Of a stretch of DNA of 64,000 nt, positions 3,109-44,824 are shown piece after piece. Below the pieces are notes generated by a model, which was not told where the DNA came from, did no database searches, and was given only the letters and a program-made list of their open reading frames with translations. Each line of letters opens with the position of its first letter. The first letter of the stretch is position 1. The DNA is from an uncultured Porphyromonadaceae bacterium. Its GTDB lineage: Bacteria; Bacteroidota; Bacteroidia; Bacteroidales; Muribaculaceae. The DNA lies in assembly GCA_947174995.1 (NCBI GenBank), contig CAMWLC010000004.1, positions 6,428-70,427 of the forward strand, in the 5' to 3' direction. Made by a program: the position numbers and the translations under genes.

Positions 3109-3303
3109 TAAGTAAGTATTCAAATTTAAACGATATAATCAAAAGTAAGTGCTCACTTGATCTTTTATACAATCTGCGGCTTCTTTTTTGCCGCTTTCAG
3201 CTTGTCGCTCAGTCGCATAGCTCGCTATGCTCCCTCTCTCCGCACAGAAATCGTCTAAAAAACAAGCTCGCATATTGTATAAATTAAATTTGAACACTTA
3301 CTT
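3109..3303. mobile_element. TIR element, copy A (195 bp, inverted relative to copies B and C)
   Basis: Starts TAAGTAAGTATTCAAATTTAAA and ends TTAAATTTGAACACTTACTTA. It is nearly identical to the reverse complement of 33570-33766, while the flanking DNA is unrelated. Confidence 0.85.
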
Positions 3304-3462
3304 ATGGAATTAGATTTGTATACTCCCTTAGACAGTGAATTGGGACGTGAGTTTAGGTGATAAATCTCAAGAAATGTTAACGGAGTGGGGAATATATACG
3401 GGAAATCGAGGAAAATTTTAAAAAAACAGCTTGAAAAATTTGGATGTGATGAAAATAATGCT

Positions 3463-3679: not shown

Positions 3680-4717
3680 TCACCGATATCGGGCGTAAAT
3701 GTCCGCTCCTTTCTGTTTGGCTATCCTGATGTGTTCGGGATTGTGTGGGTCAACACCATATTTCGACAACGGGGGCACCACCACCGGGGTGCCGGGGCGT
3801 ATGCGATCGGGATGTCCGAGAATAGCGGAGTTCTCTTCATATATATAGGGCCAGAGATTGAAGTTGCCGTAATGATCTTTGGCCATGGTGGTGAGATAGC
3901 GGGTGCGGGTGATGGTGTCTATCACCGCTTCAGTAGCTGCGGAGGCCATATCTCCCGAGGAATCAGACGGGCGCGTCGGAACGGCCTCTTCGGAAATACC
4001 GGGTTCCTGGTTGGATATGGTATCGGCACCGTCGCTTGCGGGCCATTGCTCTGCAATTACCGTATCGGATAAACCGTCCGCGGAGAAATCGGGAATCAAC
4101 CGGTCGCGGTATATGTACAGCATCGCCCCCCCGGCTATTATAGCCGCTGTCACGAAACCGGCAGCGAATCCAAGGCCAAACCTCCATCTTCTGCGTGAAC
4201 CGTGATGGTGACGGGAGCGATGATGATGAGTTGTCTCCGGTTCTTCATGAACAGTTTCTTCCTGCAGTGGTTCTTCATGAACAGTTTCTTCCTGCAGTGG
4301 TTCTTCCTGCACTGTTTCTTCGGGAGCGATATTTTCATTCTCCGTTTCGACCGGTTCCGGTGAGGGTGACTCCTGGAGTCGGTCATCAGGGAGGTCGGAG
4401 GGTATCTCAACCGTATCAAAGGCACCGAACGGAGCGTTGACGGCCCGGGAGAGATCCCTGGACGGTGTGAACGAAACCTTGTAGTGGCCGGCTATCTCGA
4501 TATTCTCGCCGGAGGTGACATCCACACTGCGACGCGGCTGTACGGGGATGGTGCGGAAAGATCCGAGACCCTTTATCCTCACTGTTTCCGAGACTTCGAG
4601 CGCAGCGGATGCCTCCTGACATAATTCCCTCACGAAATCCTCGCATACCTTTTTGCTCAGGCCGGTCTGCTTGCTCATCAAGGAGGATATGCCGGGAAGT
4701 GTTAGCTTGTTGTTCAT
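3680..4717 (-). CDS. HU-like N-terminal domain / acidic repeat / TM / LysM-like C-terminal protein
   Basis: 345 aa. The N-terminus (VRIKGLGSFRT..., HYKVSFTPS) resembles an HU/IHF fold. It is followed by EEPLQEETVH repeats, His/Arg-rich and TM segments, and a C-terminus (HYGNFNLWPYIYEEN...IRPGTPVVVP) that is LysM-like. Confidence 0.55.
   Translation of the reverse strand: MNNKLTLPGISSLMSKQTGLSKKVCEDFVRELCQEASAALEVSETVRIKGLGSFRTIPVQPRRSVDVTSGENIEIAGHYKVSFTPSRDLSRAVNAPFGAFDTVEIPSDLPDDRLQESPSPEPVETENENIAPEETVQEEPLQEETVHEEPLQEETVHEEPETTHHHRSRHHHGSRRRWRFGLGFAAGFVTAAIIAGGAMLYIYRDRLIPDFSADGLSDTVIAEQWPASDGADTISNQEPGISEEAVPTRPSDSSGDMASAATEAVIDTITRTRYLTTMAKDHYGNFNLWPYIYEENSAILGHPDRIRPGTPVVVPPLSKYGVDPHNPEHIRIAKQKGADIYARYR
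4241..4310. repeat. 30-bp in-frame tandem repeat (about 2.3 units) inside the HU-like/LysM gene
   Basis: TTCTTCATGAACAGTTTCTTCCTGCAGTGG occurs at 4241-4270 and 4271-4300, followed by a partial third unit. Confidence 0.9.
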
Positions 4718-5061: not shown

Positions 5062-5209
5062 AAGGTAAGATATGCGACTTTCAGGATGGAAAATCACTTA
5101 CAAAATTAAGTAAATTATCCCGGAATCAAAAATATTTCTTAACTTTGACACATAGTTCGTTTAATTTTTGAGAATTACTTATACTCTGTAAATTTTGAGA
5201 ACTTCGTAT

Positions 5210-24323: not shown

Positions 24324-24631
24324 AGTAGAGGAGACTTCCAGCCTCCTCAAATCAGCAGCGAAATTTAGAAAGGAGGGTGGAAGCCTCCTCTACTTTATGT
24401 TGCGAAATTGTTAAACTTTGGGGGTTGGTTCAACCGATTTTGTGGGAGGTACGTTACACTGATACAAAAGCAAGAAATCGTTTCATGATGTTAGGTTAGT
24501 TAGTTAGAAAAGTATTATGGAAAACACTGACAGAGGGCCCGCTGCGAAGCGGGCCCTTTGCCGTCACAGTAGAGGAGGCTTCCAGCCTCCTTGCATCCGG
24601 CAGTGCAAGTAGAGGAGGCTTCCAGCCTCCT
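24324..24631. repeat. Cluster of four copies of the 24-nt hairpin motif AGTAGAGGAGGCTTCCAGCCTCCT
   Basis: Copies lie at 24324-24347 (one substitution), 24371-24394 (inverted, one substitution), 24568-24591 and 24608-24631 (identical direct copies). Each contains an AGGAGGC/GCCTCCT stem. Confidence 0.85.
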
Positions 24632-24632
24632 T

Positions 24633-24830
24633 ATAAGTAGTTCTCAAAAATTAATGAATACATAAAACTTAGATGTTTTTGAGGCGATTCGGGTGCGGAA
24701 TGAGGGAGAATACGTATGTATTCGACTGAATGACAAATCCGAAGCGGCCAAAAACAGCAAGTTTTATGATTCAAGATTTTTCTTGAAATACTTTGAAATA
24801 TATGTCGTTTAATTTTTGAGAACTACTTAT
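24633..24830. mobile_element. TIR element, diverged copy D (198 bp)
   Basis: ATAAGTAGTTCTCAAAAATTAA ... TTAATTTTTGAGAACTACTTAT is a perfect 22-bp inverted repeat. The interior aligns with copies A-C, and substitutions in the stems are paired (see findings). Confidence 0.8.
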
Positions 24831-33569: not shown

Positions 33570-33766
33570 TAAGTAAGTGTTCAAATTTAATTTATACAAT
33601 AGGCGAGCCTGTTTTTTTAGACGATTTCTGTGCGGAGAGAGGGAGCATAGCGAGCTATGCGACTGAGCGACAAGCTGAAAGCGGCAAAAAAGAAGCCGCA
33701 GATTGTATAAAAGATCAAGTGAGCACTTACTTTTGATTATATCGTTTAAATTTGAACACTTACTTA
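33570..33766. mobile_element. TIR element, copy B (197 bp)
   Basis: TAAGTAAGTGTTCAAATTTAA ... TTTAAATTTGAACACTTACTTA. The last A of the element is the A of the ATG of the following small ORF. Confidence 0.85.
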
Positions 33767-33927
33767 TGGATACCAATCTTATTTTACAATATTCCGCCGT
33801 GGGAGGCTCATTTCTTCTCGCCGGTGTCCTTATGGTAATGAGGAGATGCCGCCGGCCCCGCAAAAGGGGCGGAGGCTGCTGCGGGTGCGCTCTGAAGGAA
33901 TCCTGCGCTTCGCGTAAGAGGGAGTGA
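33766..33927 (+). CDS. FeoB-associated Cys-rich membrane protein-like small protein (53 aa)
   Basis: MDTNLILQYSAVGGSFLLAGVLMVMRRCRRPRKRGGGCCGCALKESC is one TM helix followed by a basic stretch and a GCCGC cluster, as in the FeoB-associated Cys-rich family. No feoB gene is present in the window. Confidence 0.55.
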   Translation: MDTNLILQYSAVGGSFLLAGVLMVMRRCRRPRKRGGGCCGCALKESCASRKRE

Positions 33928-33952
33928 GGGGGAGGAGTAAGTGTTGAGGGTT

Positions 33953-33998
33953 AAGTGATATGGGTTAGAGGTTTGTAAACCTCTAACCCATATCACTT
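33953..33998 (+). terminator. Long perfect hairpin after the small Cys-rich ORF
   Basis: AAGTGATATGGGTTAGAGGTTT-GT-AAACCTCTAACCCATATCACTT. The 3' arm abuts or overlaps the start of element copy C. Confidence 0.6.
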
Positions 33999-34193
33999 AT
34001 GTAAGTGTTCAAATTTAATTTATACAATATGCGAGTTTATTTTTTAGCTGATTTCAGTGCGGAGGAAAGGAGCATAGCGAGCTATGCGACTGAGCGACAA
34101 GCTGAAAGCGGCAAAAAAGAAGCCGCAGATTGTATAAAAGATCAAGTGAGCATTTACTTTTGATTATATCGTTTAAATTTGAACACTTACTTA
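33998..34193. mobile_element. TIR element, copy C (196 bp, same orientation as B)
   Basis: TATGTAAGTGTTCAAATTTAA ... TTTAAATTTGAACACTTACTTA. Relative to B, the interior carries several substitutions and a 1-nt indel. Confidence 0.85.
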
Positions 34194-38254: not shown

Positions 38255-38434
38255 TGGTGTAATTATTATGTGGTCATTAATTTTTCAGAGCTACTTAAGA
38301 ACTACTTATTCATTTCGGTGCAAAAATAAACCATACTCTTTTGAAATACAAATAATTGCTTTCAATATGCCGACAACTCCACAAATGTGATACAAAATGC
38401 ACGATTTTTGATACTCCCCTCCAGGCCGCCTCTC

Positions 38435-41500: not shown

Positions 41501-42664
41501 CTCGCCGCCTGCCAGTGGTATGTGGAGGGTGAGAACGCCTACGAGCAGAACCTCCAGCTCCTCACCGCCAACACATTCACATATCTCGCCAATCCCAACA
41601 AGGAGGAGCAGCCCGAAAATCCCGGCGGCGGTGAATACGTTGAGCCGGAAACCCCGGAAATCCCCGAATCCACAGGCAATGTGGCAATGTACATCGGTGC
41701 ATCCATGGCCGAGGTGATGAACAACGAGCAGGAATGGGGCGCTGTACAGCTCTTCCAGTCCCTCTATCCCGGAGCCACTGTCATCTATGGTCTCCCCGAG
41801 CTCATCAATGAATCGGAAACTCCCTACGATTGCCTCTGGGTACACGCTGAGCGCGACCACATCGGAGCCGGTTGGCAGAACGTGACCGGACTCAATGACG
41901 AGGCCACAATCAAAGCCCTGAGCGAGTATCTGAGCAACGGCGGAAACCTTTACCTCTCCAAGCATGCAGCCCAGCTCGTTGTGGCCCTCGGCCGCACGGA
42001 TGCAGCTCCGACCGAGTTCGGCAACACCGATCCGAACATCATCCTGGAGCGTCCCGACCATGATGAGTGGCAGGCCAACATCTACGCCAACGGCGAGGAC
42101 TGGTCAGAACACACCATCTTCTATCAGATTCCCTACATAGATGTGGAGCACGGCAAGGTGATCGACCTTCTCGGCAAGGGTGCAAGACACTATGACCGCA
42201 ACTGCATGTGGAAGCTCAACGACTTCGGCGGTCATGACGAGTTCTGTCGCAACCACAACGCCCGCGTGCTCGCCACATGGGGCCACAACGGCGGCCAGGC
42301 TTGGGGGGGCATCATAGAGTTCATGCCCCGCACAGGCACCATGAACCGCGCCATATCCCAGGATCGTGTTGAGGCTCGCAAGGGCACGGTAGTGGCCAAC
42401 GGCCTCGCAGCTTACCAAATAGCTCCTCTCCAGGGGTCCGTGAATCCCTATCAGGACAATATCAACAAGCTCACCTCCAATATCCTCGCCTATCTCTCGC
42501 CCGTGGCTGAGGAGGATCTGTCAACCGGTGTCGCCGGTGTTTCGACAGCCGAGGCTCCCGTGCGCTGGTTCACTCTCCAGGGAGTCGAGGTGGTTCGCCC
42601 GAGCGCAGCCGGCATCTACATCCGCGTCTGCGGCAAGGAGAGCCACAAGGTAATAGTGAAGTAA
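38534..42664 (+). CDS. Multidomain secreted GH32-like fructanase: LamG-like domain + GH32-like catalytic domain + 2 x DUF4960-like modules + T9SS CTD
   Basis: The start is taken at the first Met before the signal peptide (MTKLCMAALLTAAGHTAAVHA); 38546 or 38558 are also possible. GH32 blocks are LYHLFFQ, HWGHIVSEDLMHWRD, GCWSGCVAI, FRDC and AEMPNL. Two DUF4960-like modules lie at about 40785-41590 and 41680-42510. The CTD is RWFTLQGVEVVRPSAAGIYIRVCGKESHKVIVK. Confidence 0.75.
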   Translation: MLFSMTDNMTKLCMAALLTAAGHTAAVHADRVAWFPMDVQSGLNERVSGGHWDIQGNFAPMQISLDASRPAWRTDGYTSKAVAHLGNLVDGSEMSATVWVAPDTYPIIVHEHPTEEKSEIVSCLTDNSGFGFFLGRTGHYSFVTYVGGVRVEVESDRLLPLWEWTCLSGVVSDGKVRLYAGKTLVGEADAPGNVRVADSELFIARRNDGGDWPGVNVRTFNGGIGEIAVYSNAIGVDEMEDTMPALLNLPADHYKGNRMRAGFHGQPEMNWTNETHGLIYSGGLYHLFFQKTGSAPVMTHQHWGHIVSEDLMHWRDTRPALAPGESYDIKGCWSGCVAIDRALNGGAPTIFYTGVDYAQPYLAMATATDATLANWEKSASNPIVTLKDGAESHFRDCFYFKGDDGCCYMITGTSKDGRAATMLHRLDGDSWTDLGYSWVSEDAGVDGNFAEMPNLVKLGDKWMMTTTALGSDQGVVCRYRLGSLDGGRFVPDEAYRLPRKVDILAERGFGLMSPSPSVDASGNVIAMGIVADKLPTHYNLSNGFAHLYSLPRVWTLSDGELAQAPHPMTETLRAEDAFGQYHAADVALNGTLSLENVRGRAAEIDARFTVGTSTFGINFFKNAKGRQATLSYNPATHELAVDFGGIKRWGQDEGNPNRFSAIIPADRAPREGEEFRLHLFLDRSILDIFAGDRYAASVRVFCEDDEADNIELFADGLTTVASVDAYLMDGGDHTAEPVAPKEFQLPANNGKVAFLKSSLGVSQQEQAALDFFRRTNPKGTVFETSDLSGLNTKKIDCLWIHIDRMGLEHGWEHLPAEFVAPEVVEAVQNYLEAGGNIYLTSHATQYAVAIGRLNSHYAPNEIATGEGGHGTDSWTVNPRIMQRYDHSSHAIYNDLEECDIFEWNEGTFGLLYGGGANIHREDHNCMWRLRDFHFSSEGDNRIEQFENATHSRVIGTWGQDNSDEFAGIIEFYPMQNADHEYGGTIIANGLAACQWYVEGENAYEQNLQLLTANTFTYLANPNKEEQPENPGGGEYVEPETPEIPESTGNVAMYIGASMAEVMNNEQEWGAVQLFQSLYPGATVIYGLPELINESETPYDCLWVHAERDHIGAGWQNVTGLNDEATIKALSEYLSNGGNLYLSKHAAQLVVALGRTDAAPTEFGNTDPNIILERPDHDEWQANIYANGEDWSEHTIFYQIPYIDVEHGKVIDLLGKGARHYDRNCMWKLNDFGGHDEFCRNHNARVLATWGHNGGQAWGGIIEFMPRTGTMNRAISQDRVEARKGTVVANGLAAYQIAPLQGSVNPYQDNINKLTSNILAYLSPVAEEDLSTGVAGVSTAEAPVRWFTLQGVEVVRPSAAGIYIRVCGKESHKVIVK

Positions 42665-42717
42665 CGTCTGAAGTAGAGGAGGCATCCCTGCCTCCTTACT
42701 ACAATCTGTCGTACAGT

Positions 42718-44461: not shown

Positions 44462-44564
44462 GCGCGGAGTTCACTCTCCAGGGTGTCGAGGTAGCTCGTC
44501 CGGGCGCACCGGCATCTACATACGCGTCTGCGGCAAGGAGAGTCACAAGGTAATAGTGAAGTAA
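44462..44564 (+). pseudogene. Remnant of a T9SS C-terminal domain coding end (duplicate of 42562-42664, frameshifted)
   Basis: About 90% identical by eye to the last ~100 nt of the GH32-like gene, including the TAA stop and the following GTCTGAAGT(A/T)GAGGAGG. A 1-nt deletion (CGCAGCCGGC versus CGCACCGGC) breaks the frame, and there is no upstream ORF. Confidence 0.7.
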
Positions 44565-44824
44565 CGTCTGAAGTTGAGGAGGTATCTCGAATTTTTTTGG
44601 TCAAAATAGGATATTATTGGAATAAATGGGGGTAATTGGAACTCTTGTTTACTCGGAATTGATTTCATAATTTTGATGTGGAAATGATAACACCATTATC
44701 AAATGCGAATCACATCTTAAATTATATCAATATGAAACATTTCTGCTTCTGTGCCTAATATGCTGATTATGGATATGCCACCATTTCCGGCAGCGGCAGG
44801 AACTTCAGTCTTTTAATTTCTCCG

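Follow-up and report, generated by a model that had tools for sequence, protein, structure and literature searches.

Copy D, at positions 24633-24830 of a 64,000-nt stretch (hereafter the window) of contig CAMWLC010000004.1 from an uncultured Porphyromonadaceae bacterium of the Muribaculaceae, raises a simple question: why does a repeat that differs heavily in sequence from the three other copies of the window, A to C, still fold as they do? A preliminary description had read its paired substitutions as the mark of selection on an RNA fold or a DNA cruciform, as opposed to the neutral decay of a dead MITE (miniature inverted-repeat transposable element). Our analysis leads us to favour, with moderate confidence, a reading in which copy D belongs to a non-autonomous MITE family of gut Bacteroidales, whose rod-like fold is retained because the source copies need a single-stranded form.

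The sequence of copy D was re-read, and every feature that had been listed for it was present. The complementary ends of 24633-24830 are 22 nt long and read ATAAGTAGTTCTCAAAAATTAA (24633-24654) and TTAATTTTTGAGAACTACTTAT (24809-24830), one complementary base per side more than the full element, which spans 24634-24829; in copies A-C the terminal inverted repeats (TIRs) are TAAGTAAGTGTTCAAATTTAA and the complement of TAAGTAAGTGTTCAAATTTAA. The second stem (Table 1) is formed by TTTATACAAT with ATTGTATAAA in copies A-C, the inner stem is TTCGG/CCGAA in D and TTTCAG/CTGAAA in C, and the central hairpin, written with its outer pair, is GAATAC-GTAT-GTATTC in D and GCATAG-CGAG-CTATGC in A-C. The T-run GTTTTTG (24675-24681) pairs with the A-run CAAAAAC (24749-24755), as part of a longer frame whose 5' half, 24675-24689, faces 24742-24755 (AAGCGGCC, CAAAAAC) with conserved A·G and G·G mismatches inside. 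The blocks GTGCGGA, GAGGGAG and CGACTGA are also found in D. The paired changes reported at the TIRs, the second stem, the inner stem and the central hairpin, and the retained pairing of the T-run with the A-run, were thus borne out: over the 68 pairs of the family structure, which was derived from per-sequence minimum-energy folds, copies B and D (58% identity) differ on both sides and still pair at 17, differ on one side at 2, and have lost the pair in either copy at 9. Folded as RNA, copy D reached -75.6 kcal/mol (z = -10.8, with 0 of 200 shuffles as good) and copy B -66.3 kcal/mol (z = -6.7); as DNA, copy D reached -46.6 kcal/mol (z = -11.5). The complementary strands of D and B also fold, but more weakly (-59.9 and -55.0 kcal/mol).

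These four copies are members of a much larger family. A core pattern taken from the blocks common to copies A-D (GTGCGGA N5 GGAG N12-18 CGACTGA NN GACAA) matched the window four times, with 0 matches expected, and at least 94 stretches in species-representative genomes. The genome matches listed were all from Bacteroidales, namely Muribaculaceae, Sangeribacter, Paramuribaculum, Barnesiella, Paludibacteraceae and metagenome-assembled genomes (MAGs) labelled Bacteroides or Porphyromonadaceae; they often stood at contig ends, as a repeat would give, and several MAGs carried 7-10 or more loci. Among viral contigs, neither the core pattern nor the terminal repeats gave a match, and the frame pattern described below gave one stray match. 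An alignment (A2) of 72 distinct full copies over 203 columns comprised elements of ~184-198 bp with TIRs of 21 bp, falling into subfamilies that differ in their terminal repeats: TAAGTAAGTGTTCAAATTTAA (copies A-C), TAAGTAGTTCTTAAAAATTAA (copy D), TAAGTAAGTGAGAAAAATTAA and AAGGTAGGTTCTATAAATTGG. The nearest relatives of copy D lie in other genomes (L008, 83% identity; L092, 80%; fetched loci are numbered with the prefix L), and copy D is a member of its own subfamily, not a stray decayed copy. The interior tolerates indels of hairpin length and open reading frames (ORFs) are not conserved across copies; a coding reading was rejected on these grounds.

Pairs of the family structure were counted on this alignment. 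In all, 91.2% of cells pair, against 35-47% when the 3' partners were slid by 1-3 columns, and 42 of the 68 pairs show a double-sided change. Double-change cells numbered 600, against 95-147 for slid partners, bearing in mind that cells count sequences, not events, and that the double changes mostly separate subfamilies. The covariation score was 0.359, compared with 0.07-0.08 for slid partners, and was reached by 0 of 500 shuffles. An independent prediction by RNAalifold gave 41 pairs, 29 of them with compensatory change. The TIR stem (helix 1) had 96.5% of its cells paired and double-sided change in 12 of its 21 pairs, and pairs 79-93, 81-92 and 84-89 of the central hairpin had 23, 11 and 36 double-sided changes. 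The claim of a fold conserved by compensatory change, for which covariation in a larger alignment had been proposed as the check, is therefore upheld by the 72 copies.

The preliminary description had called the conserved sequence blocks unpaired, and here the alignment gave a different picture. On the 5' side the columns read G67-G68A69-N70N71-G72A73-R74G75-G76A77-G78 and on the opposite side, 3' to 5', C105-A104G103-N102N101-A100G99-U98C97-A96G95-C94. Columns N70 and N102 covary (GC 49, AU 16, GU 2), as do N71 and N101 (UA 19, CG 10, GU 10, UG 8, GC 6). The GA dinucleotides must therefore face each other, forming three tandem G·A/A·G mismatches separated by 2-bp helical spacers; pairs 67-105, 70-102, 71-101, 74-98, 75-97 and 78-94 border the three GA/GA 2x2 loops. 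The blocks are thus not unpaired: they form a ladder of tandem G·A pairs held between covarying Watson-Crick pairs. In the outer frame, where AGGCGAUU lies opposite AAGCGGC, one A bulges out and two mismatches occur, a conserved A·G and a G·G. From the outside inward, the predicted rod would consist of the terminal-repeat stem, the second stem, the T-run/A-run stem and this conserved frame with its purine-purine mismatches, followed by a short variable stem, the three tandem G·A/A·G mismatches with their 2-bp Watson-Crick spacers and a variable terminal hairpin.

The two strands of the element are not equivalent with respect to this rod. On the complement, the GA/GA loops become TC/TC, that is, pyrimidine-pyrimidine mismatches. 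G·U cells outnumber A·C cells by 177 to 59 overall and by 113 to 14 within the inner helix. With RNA parameters, every one of the 72 copies folds more stably as the GA strand than as its complement (-67.5 vs -54.8 kcal/mol); with DNA parameters, 71 of the 72 do. From the G·U excess and the better folding of the GA strand it follows that the selected structure is one single strand, either RNA or single-stranded DNA (ssDNA). A cruciform extrudes both strands, and here only one folds well; the strand-specific fold, with its G·U excess and its preference in 72/72 copies, argues against the cruciform that had been proposed, which is accordingly disfavoured. A diverged copy recovered by nhmmer only (L066:4143-4337) has lost GTGC and ACAA and kept the three GA/GA loops. 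This copy, like the frame-only scan that follows, is free of bias from the core pattern because neither was selected by it.

The frame-only scan of metagenomes used TTTTTKAG NN RATT N46-58 AAGC NN C M AAAAA and returned 123 matches, of which 11 had the core of the present family (type I). The other, sister types (L099-L218, metagenome contigs) have the frame TTTTTKAGGCGATT...AAGCGGCMAAAAA in common, differ in their centres and, in some cases, have unrelated ends; the conservation of the frame among them is partly ascertainment, the frame being the search pattern. All of them fold into the same rod, and always better on the same strand. In minimum-energy folds of 87 unique segments, GA/GA accounted for 99 of ~160 2x2 loops, and the complements contained 14 TC/TC loops; one sister type has four tandem G·A pairs. 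When positions adjacent to the frame were counted from the anchors, without alignment, 85% paired, against ~50% after shuffling, and the pair types varied (for example T-A 43, G-C 31). Types I, III, IV, VI and VIII share the terminal motif TAAG..(N)..TGTTYAAA, and the terminal repeats of types II and VII have no recognisable similarity to those of type I.

We then turned to the mobility of the family. All full copies end in TAAG...CTTA and are flanked by TA, with no longer direct repeat in the flanks. The flanks are AT-rich (of the 72 copies, 30 have A and 22 have T at position -1, and 40 have T and 22 have A at position +1), so that the target is symmetric, A-TA-T. A filled site in L055 could be compared with the near-identical empty site of L012 (CA-TA-AGTAAAAT): what L055 has in addition amounts to the element less one TA, the exact boundary being ambiguous inside a 7-nt repeat. 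L049 and L093 are without the element at intergenic sites orthologous to those of copies in L032 and L168, and short-read assemblies (Logan contigs) of the strain to which the window belongs are interrupted at copies B and C. The element is short and non-coding, with TIRs, many dispersed copies, TA duplication and presence/absence polymorphism; the family is a mobile MITE. The contrast drawn earlier between selection on a fold and a dead MITE was thus a false one, given the TIRs, the TA ends, the symmetric target and the polymorphism at orthologous sites.

Several variants and nested arrangements were seen among the copies. A hairpin-like insertion of ~46 nt (CAATTGAAAATCGACGAGTTTCCTTTA...GACGAGTC) occupies the A-run of L013:6438-6669, L015:4474-4698, L075:6595-6823 and L051:2760-2992. 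Two mini-elements of 71 and 87 bp (L069:3215-3285 and L092:5453-5539) consist of scarcely more than two terminal repeats; they could have arisen by deletion or represent the smallest unit that is mobile. At L080:7394-7774, at L078:74-222 and in the right flank of L186, a second repeat, its ends like GAGAGTGTTTGAATTTAA, breaks into copies or adjoins them; it resembles sister type IV, which suggests nested insertions among related families. At L173:14360-14745 a copy sits mid-way in another palindromic repeat (TTTTTACCGAACTGTTGTGA...CACAATAGTTCGGTAA), and the related locus L115:8180-8380 has just a terminal-repeat-like remnant where L173 has the copy.

If the fold is selected, on which copies does selection act? 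In 8 copies that happened to lie in the fetched loci (incidental copies), not ascertained by the core pattern, mismatches affected 21 of 180 core positions (11.7%) and 156 of 1111 positions elsewhere (14.0%). Within clusters of the alignment, paired columns carried on average 0.64 singletons each and unpaired columns 0.79. Paired positions had 74 singletons in all, of which 38 destroy the pair, 23 turn it into G·U and 13 leave it Watson-Crick. Individual copies thus appear to decay about as fast in the core as elsewhere, nearly neutrally. Selection probably falls on the source copies, the subfamily-founding lineages retaining rod and ladder. The claim of selection in place of neutral decay therefore stands between subfamilies, that is, for the copies that spread, and does not appear to hold within individual copies. 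This comes near to the reservation that the pairs might reflect subfamilies that are independently palindromic, with the difference that all of them share the same asymmetric core.

These results are consistent with the following mechanism. A transposase acting in trans, binding the TIRs and duplicating TA, would move the element; from family knowledge and the features of the target, we infer a two-ended DDE transposase of the IS630/Tc1-mariner kind as the mover. Only copies able to adopt the rod when single-stranded, as a transcript or as transient ssDNA, would go on yielding descendants. Since the constraint would lie on source copies and not on single copies, the fold would serve the propagation or persistence of the element itself and not a host function at each locus.

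A number of observations weigh against this reading. For a standard cut-and-paste DDE transposase the substrate is double-stranded DNA and the terminal repeats suffice, which leaves no evident reason for a strand-specific internal fold. No autonomous partner, be it a long element with these ends or a transposase gene, turned up when the window and ~1.7 Mb of fetched loci were searched for terminal-repeat pairs 0.6-4 kb apart, long segments repeated among loci and split frames; the long-element candidates from this search enclosed ordinary genes (an outer-membrane-like protein, a hydrolase, a Gly/Trp-rich protein) and were rejected. Of the copies between co-directional genes, 33 have the sense and 20 the antisense orientation, a weak bias that is not significant, and neither is orientation relative to local GC skew (39:52); a lagging-strand ssDNA and a read-through RNA model both go without direct support from these counts. 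(Copies between divergent genes numbered 18 and those between convergent genes 6.) In the 72-copy alignment, 23 core positions are invariant because the search pattern required them. The evidence that single copies decay neutrally comes from small samples, including the 8 incidental copies, and in 19 frame-ascertained type I copies the core had diverged by 4.6% and the rest by 11%, a comparison confounded by the mixing of private and subfamily-level changes. Lastly, type II, a sister type with the ends TAGGGCG...CGCCCTA, is without G·A loops and is abundant, with 38 copies; it apparently belongs to a longer repeat that continues to its right.

A related possibility, which we put forward tentatively and hold to be less than probable, is that the internal module itself (T-run/A-run, frame, ladder and terminal hairpin) is the selected unit in place of the TIRs, defining a widespread rod-shaped superfamily that has a strand-specific single-stranded intermediate (ssDNA or RNA) or a new protein-binding nucleic-acid motif spread by transposition. 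If true, such a superfamily would be a bacterial mobile element outside the current insertion sequence (IS)/MITE classes.

Among the rival explanations, the one that survives best is that the host uses the element as a structured non-coding or cis-acting RNA, the GA-strand rod binding a protein through the ladder or setting processing or stability, with many loci under selection. Such a role in RNA processing or stability has been reported for the ERIC, Correia and REP repeats. A strand-specific fold, a G·U excess and purine-purine mismatches of the kind typical of protein-binding RNA helices would all be expected of it, and the mild sense excess (33 vs 20), the sense orientation of all four window copies relative to an adjacent gene, the lower core divergence in the frame-ascertained sample and the slightly fewer singletons in paired columns lean the same way. 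We nevertheless consider it rather unlikely. Rfam searches of the window and the sister types returned tRNAs only at the gathering threshold and, at E <= 10, generic hairpin hits (microRNA models and others), so that even at E = 10 there was no match to this element, and inspection of the sequence found neither an inward Bacteroidetes promoter box nor a terminator inside the element. The orientation bias is not significant, the core of incidental copies is lost equally fast, half of the singletons in paired columns disrupt the pairing, and the copies are young and polymorphic between related genomes.

Movement through a strand-specific ssDNA or RNA intermediate, in which an HUH/Y1-type transposase or a reverse transcriptase reads the rod (frame and G·A ladder) and the TIRs are no more than the base of the hairpin, strikes us as improbable. 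It would account for the sister types, which keep frame and rod although types II and VII differ in their terminal repeats, and it agrees with the strand-specific structure, with selection seemingly on source copies and with the strong folding of copy D under DNA parameters; tandem G·A pairs are stable in DNA and RNA alike. The symmetric A-TA-T target with TA on both sides, however, fits a two-ended DDE enzyme and not the one-sided IS200/IS605 type, and most of the types (I, III, IV, VI and VIII) do share a terminal motif. Nor is there a GC-skew orientation bias, no HUH or reverse transcriptase gene was seen beside the copies among the few neighbours examined, and the conservation of the frame, as noted, is partly ascertainment.

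It is more doubtful still that there is no structural selection at all and that palindromy is renewed neutrally, by intrastrand template switching or by gene conversion from arm to arm. It is established that quasi-palindromes can mutate through correction by template switching, and the weak constraint on single copies and the concentration of double changes between subfamilies would suit it. Such renewal would, however, perfect the GA/GA, A·G and G·G mismatches, which persist in all type I subfamilies, in the L066 copy and in most sister types, and it predicts neither the 113:14 ratio of G·U to A·C nor the 72/72 strand preference. Hardly credible, finally, is a role as double-stranded DNA, be it the cruciform dealt with above or the invertible promoter cassette that had also been suggested, for although 21-bp inverted repeats do surround ~150 bp and the subfamily 1 ends carry an exact TAnnTTTG box, that box points outward at both ends, so inversion would change nothing, the D subfamily and others lack it, the copies are dispersed by the hundreds in unrelated contexts with no recombinase gene among the neighbours examined, and the B/C locus has the same orientation in all assemblies, which apparently represent one strain.

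The outward boxes are a feature in their own right. Of the 72 copies, 40 have an exact -7 box (TAnnTTTG) at the right end and 37 at the left. It occurs in subfamily 1 alone and may act as a mobile promoter; at the right end of copy B (33746-33768) the exact Bacteroidetes -7 box TAAATTTG reads outward. As the cause of the conserved fold the box was rejected, because it is confined to one subfamily.

The window as a whole is ordinary chromosome, with a phosphofructokinase (PFK) gene, a caspase-domain protein, an MFS transporter and a levan/fructan utilisation locus, and it contains four full copies and three solo ends (Table 1). The 3' end of copy B overlaps the ATG of a 53-aa ORF (33766-33927) that is Cys-rich and FeoB-associated-like, with a Pfam E of 5e-4, below the cut-off.

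Table 1. Parts of copy D, and the other copies and solo ends of the family in the window (aa, amino acids; SGBP, surface glycan-binding protein).
Feature	Position	Strand	Remarks
Copy D, full element, second subfamily	24634-24829	+	TA at both ends; nhmmer E = 3e-37
D left terminal inverted repeat, TAAGTAGTTCTCAAAAATTAA	24634-24654	+	Pairs with 24809-24829
Second stem, 5' arm, CATAAAACTT	24661-24670	+	Partner AAGTTTTATG at 24759-24768; helix 2
Conserved frame, 5' half: T-run GTTTTTG (24675-24681), then AGGCGATT	24675-24689	+	
G·A ladder, 5' side: G-GA-AT-GA-GG-GA-G	24697-24708	+	Opposite 24723-24734, C-GA-CT-GA-AT-GA-C
Central hairpin, AATAC-GTAT-GTATT	24709-24722	+	Stem kept, sequence differing between subfamilies
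G·A ladder, 3' side, CGACTGAATGACAA	24723-24736	+	
Side hairpin, 3' arm: TTCAAGA-TTTT-TCTTGAA	24770-24787	+	Variable or missing in other subfamilies
D right terminal inverted repeat, TTAATTTTTGAGAACTACTTA	24809-24829	+	
Copy A, first subfamily	3109-3304	-	35 nt upstream of DUF4230 gene, same orientation
Solo right end, D subfamily	5142-5182	+	41 nt; 88% identical to 24790-24830
Solo right-end fragment, first subfamily, TTGAATTTGAACACTTACTAA	27530-27557	+	Immediately past gene stop
Copy B, first subfamily	33570-33766	+	51 nt past MTA/SAH-nucleosidase-like gene
Copy C, first subfamily	33998-34193	+	Flanked by 53-aa ORF and convergent levan-binding SGBP gene
Solo right end, D subfamily, partial duplication, TAATTTTTCAGAGCTACTTAAGAACTACTTAT	38265-38310	+	

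Other repeats were observed in the same window. Small hairpins tagged GTAG (GTAGAGGAGGCTTCCAGCCTCC, REP/BIME type) are clustered at 24325-24632 (24325+, 24372-, 24569+, 24609+), between the PFK gene and copy D, the last of them ending 2 nt before D; the window has 6 matches to such hairpins, against 0.2 expected by chance. Similar tags terminate the repeats 42609-42686 and 44509-44586. The latter are contained in two segments of ~120 nt (42568-42686 and 44469-44586), 88-95% identical and 1.9 kb apart, which take in the 3' ends of two genes, one of the GH32 family and one for an AAA-ATPase/PD-(D/E)XK protein, along with a GTAG hairpin. A perfect 15-bp hairpin, GGGTTAGAGGTTTGTAAACCTCTAACCC, lies with its flanks at 33949-33990, 8 nt upstream of copy C. 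Both copy C and copy D are immediately preceded by hairpins, perhaps a sign of target preference. Apart from these, 5-7 tandem units of 15 nt (TTCTTCATGAACAGT / TTCTTCCTGCAGTGG) occupy 4241-4345, within the gene 3680-4717 (-); the predicted product has an N-terminal HU-type DNA-binding domain, and the units would encode its repetitive C-terminal tail.

MITEs are usually regarded as junk that is constrained at its ends only. Here the interior is constrained, with a strand-specific rod maintained through dozens of compensatory changes and a regular ladder present across subfamilies and sister types that have different ends. If confirmed, this would offer a testable handle on why MITEs so frequently form whole-length hairpins, whether through single-strand propagation or RNA activity. 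It would also add an uncatalogued structured motif, one without a match in Rfam 15 or in the literature searched, that is present in many copies per genome and, among the genome matches listed, in Bacteroidales only, mainly Muribaculaceae. In practical terms, it would identify a repeat that fragments Muribaculaceae assemblies and that, in one subfamily, puts outward promoter boxes beside genes.

The family appears to be previously undescribed. Searches of the literature on MITEs in Muribaculaceae, Bacteroidales and Bacteroidetes, and for the sequence strings, found no description, and BLAST gave no match for copy B against plasmids or for copy D against phages. A generic catalogue of Bacteroidota MITEs (2024 preprint) does not include this structure.

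Several known structured elements were considered and set aside. The ladder recalls kink-turns and box C/D motifs in its consecutive G·A/A·G pairs closed by G-C pairs and in the CUGA on its 3' side, but it has three symmetric 2x2 loops spaced by 2 bp in place of one asymmetric loop and no 3-nt bulge, and GUGCGGA does not fit the C box RUGAUGA. A hammerhead ribozyme was rejected because CUGA-NN-GA does not match CUGANGA and the order of the boxes is wrong; SRP, 6S and Y RNA because they gave no Rfam signal; a retron non-coding RNA because there is no reverse transcriptase among the few neighbours examined and the copies are dispersed. A resemblance to the ssoA CS-6 site was discounted, the loop TAGCGA occurring in some subfamilies only.

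The closest comparisons are with other repeats of bacterial chromosomes. Like ERIC/IRU and REP/BIME sequences, the present elements are intergenic imperfect palindromes with a conserved hairpin potential, and reports on ERIC and REP sequences describe both compensatory substitutions and an influence, at the RNA level, on the stability of mRNA. These repeats, however, are without clear terminal repeats and TA duplication, and REPs are linked to RAYT (Y1) transposases, whereas the present element is ~190 bp long with a symmetric target. REPs are hairpins of 20-40 bp tagged GTAG or CGTC (PMC3733652). The small hairpins at 24325-24632 do fit that definition; the element itself was rejected as a REP/BIME, with its ~190 bp, TA on both sides and a GTAG present only in the D-type repeat, inside the stem. 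With the palindrome-associated elements derived from IS200/IS605, RAYT/REP systems and integron attC sites it shares a folded single strand, strand specificity and the primacy of structure over sequence. Those systems are without TIRs and target duplication, and have a one-sided target or an R''/R' core GTTRRRY, neither of which is seen here; an IS200/IS605 derivative (PATE) was rejected on the presence of terminal repeats and the symmetry of the target, and an attC site (core sites RYYYAAC/GTTRRRY) on the ends, which are TAAGTA...TACTTA. Comparable, too, are TA-target MITEs such as the Correia elements of Neisseria (CREE/NEMIS), the cyanobacterial Nezha among those derived from IS630/Tc1-mariner and, as a eukaryotic analogue, Stowaway of plants. 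As in these, the elements are ~100-300 bp long and non-coding, with TIRs of ~20-26 bp, TA on both sides, many intergenic copies, the potential to form a hairpin over the whole length and possible outward promoters in their ends. Unlike ordinary MITEs, in which the ends are conserved and the interior is free, the present family has in its interior a conserved, strand-specific module that is common to types with differing TIRs.

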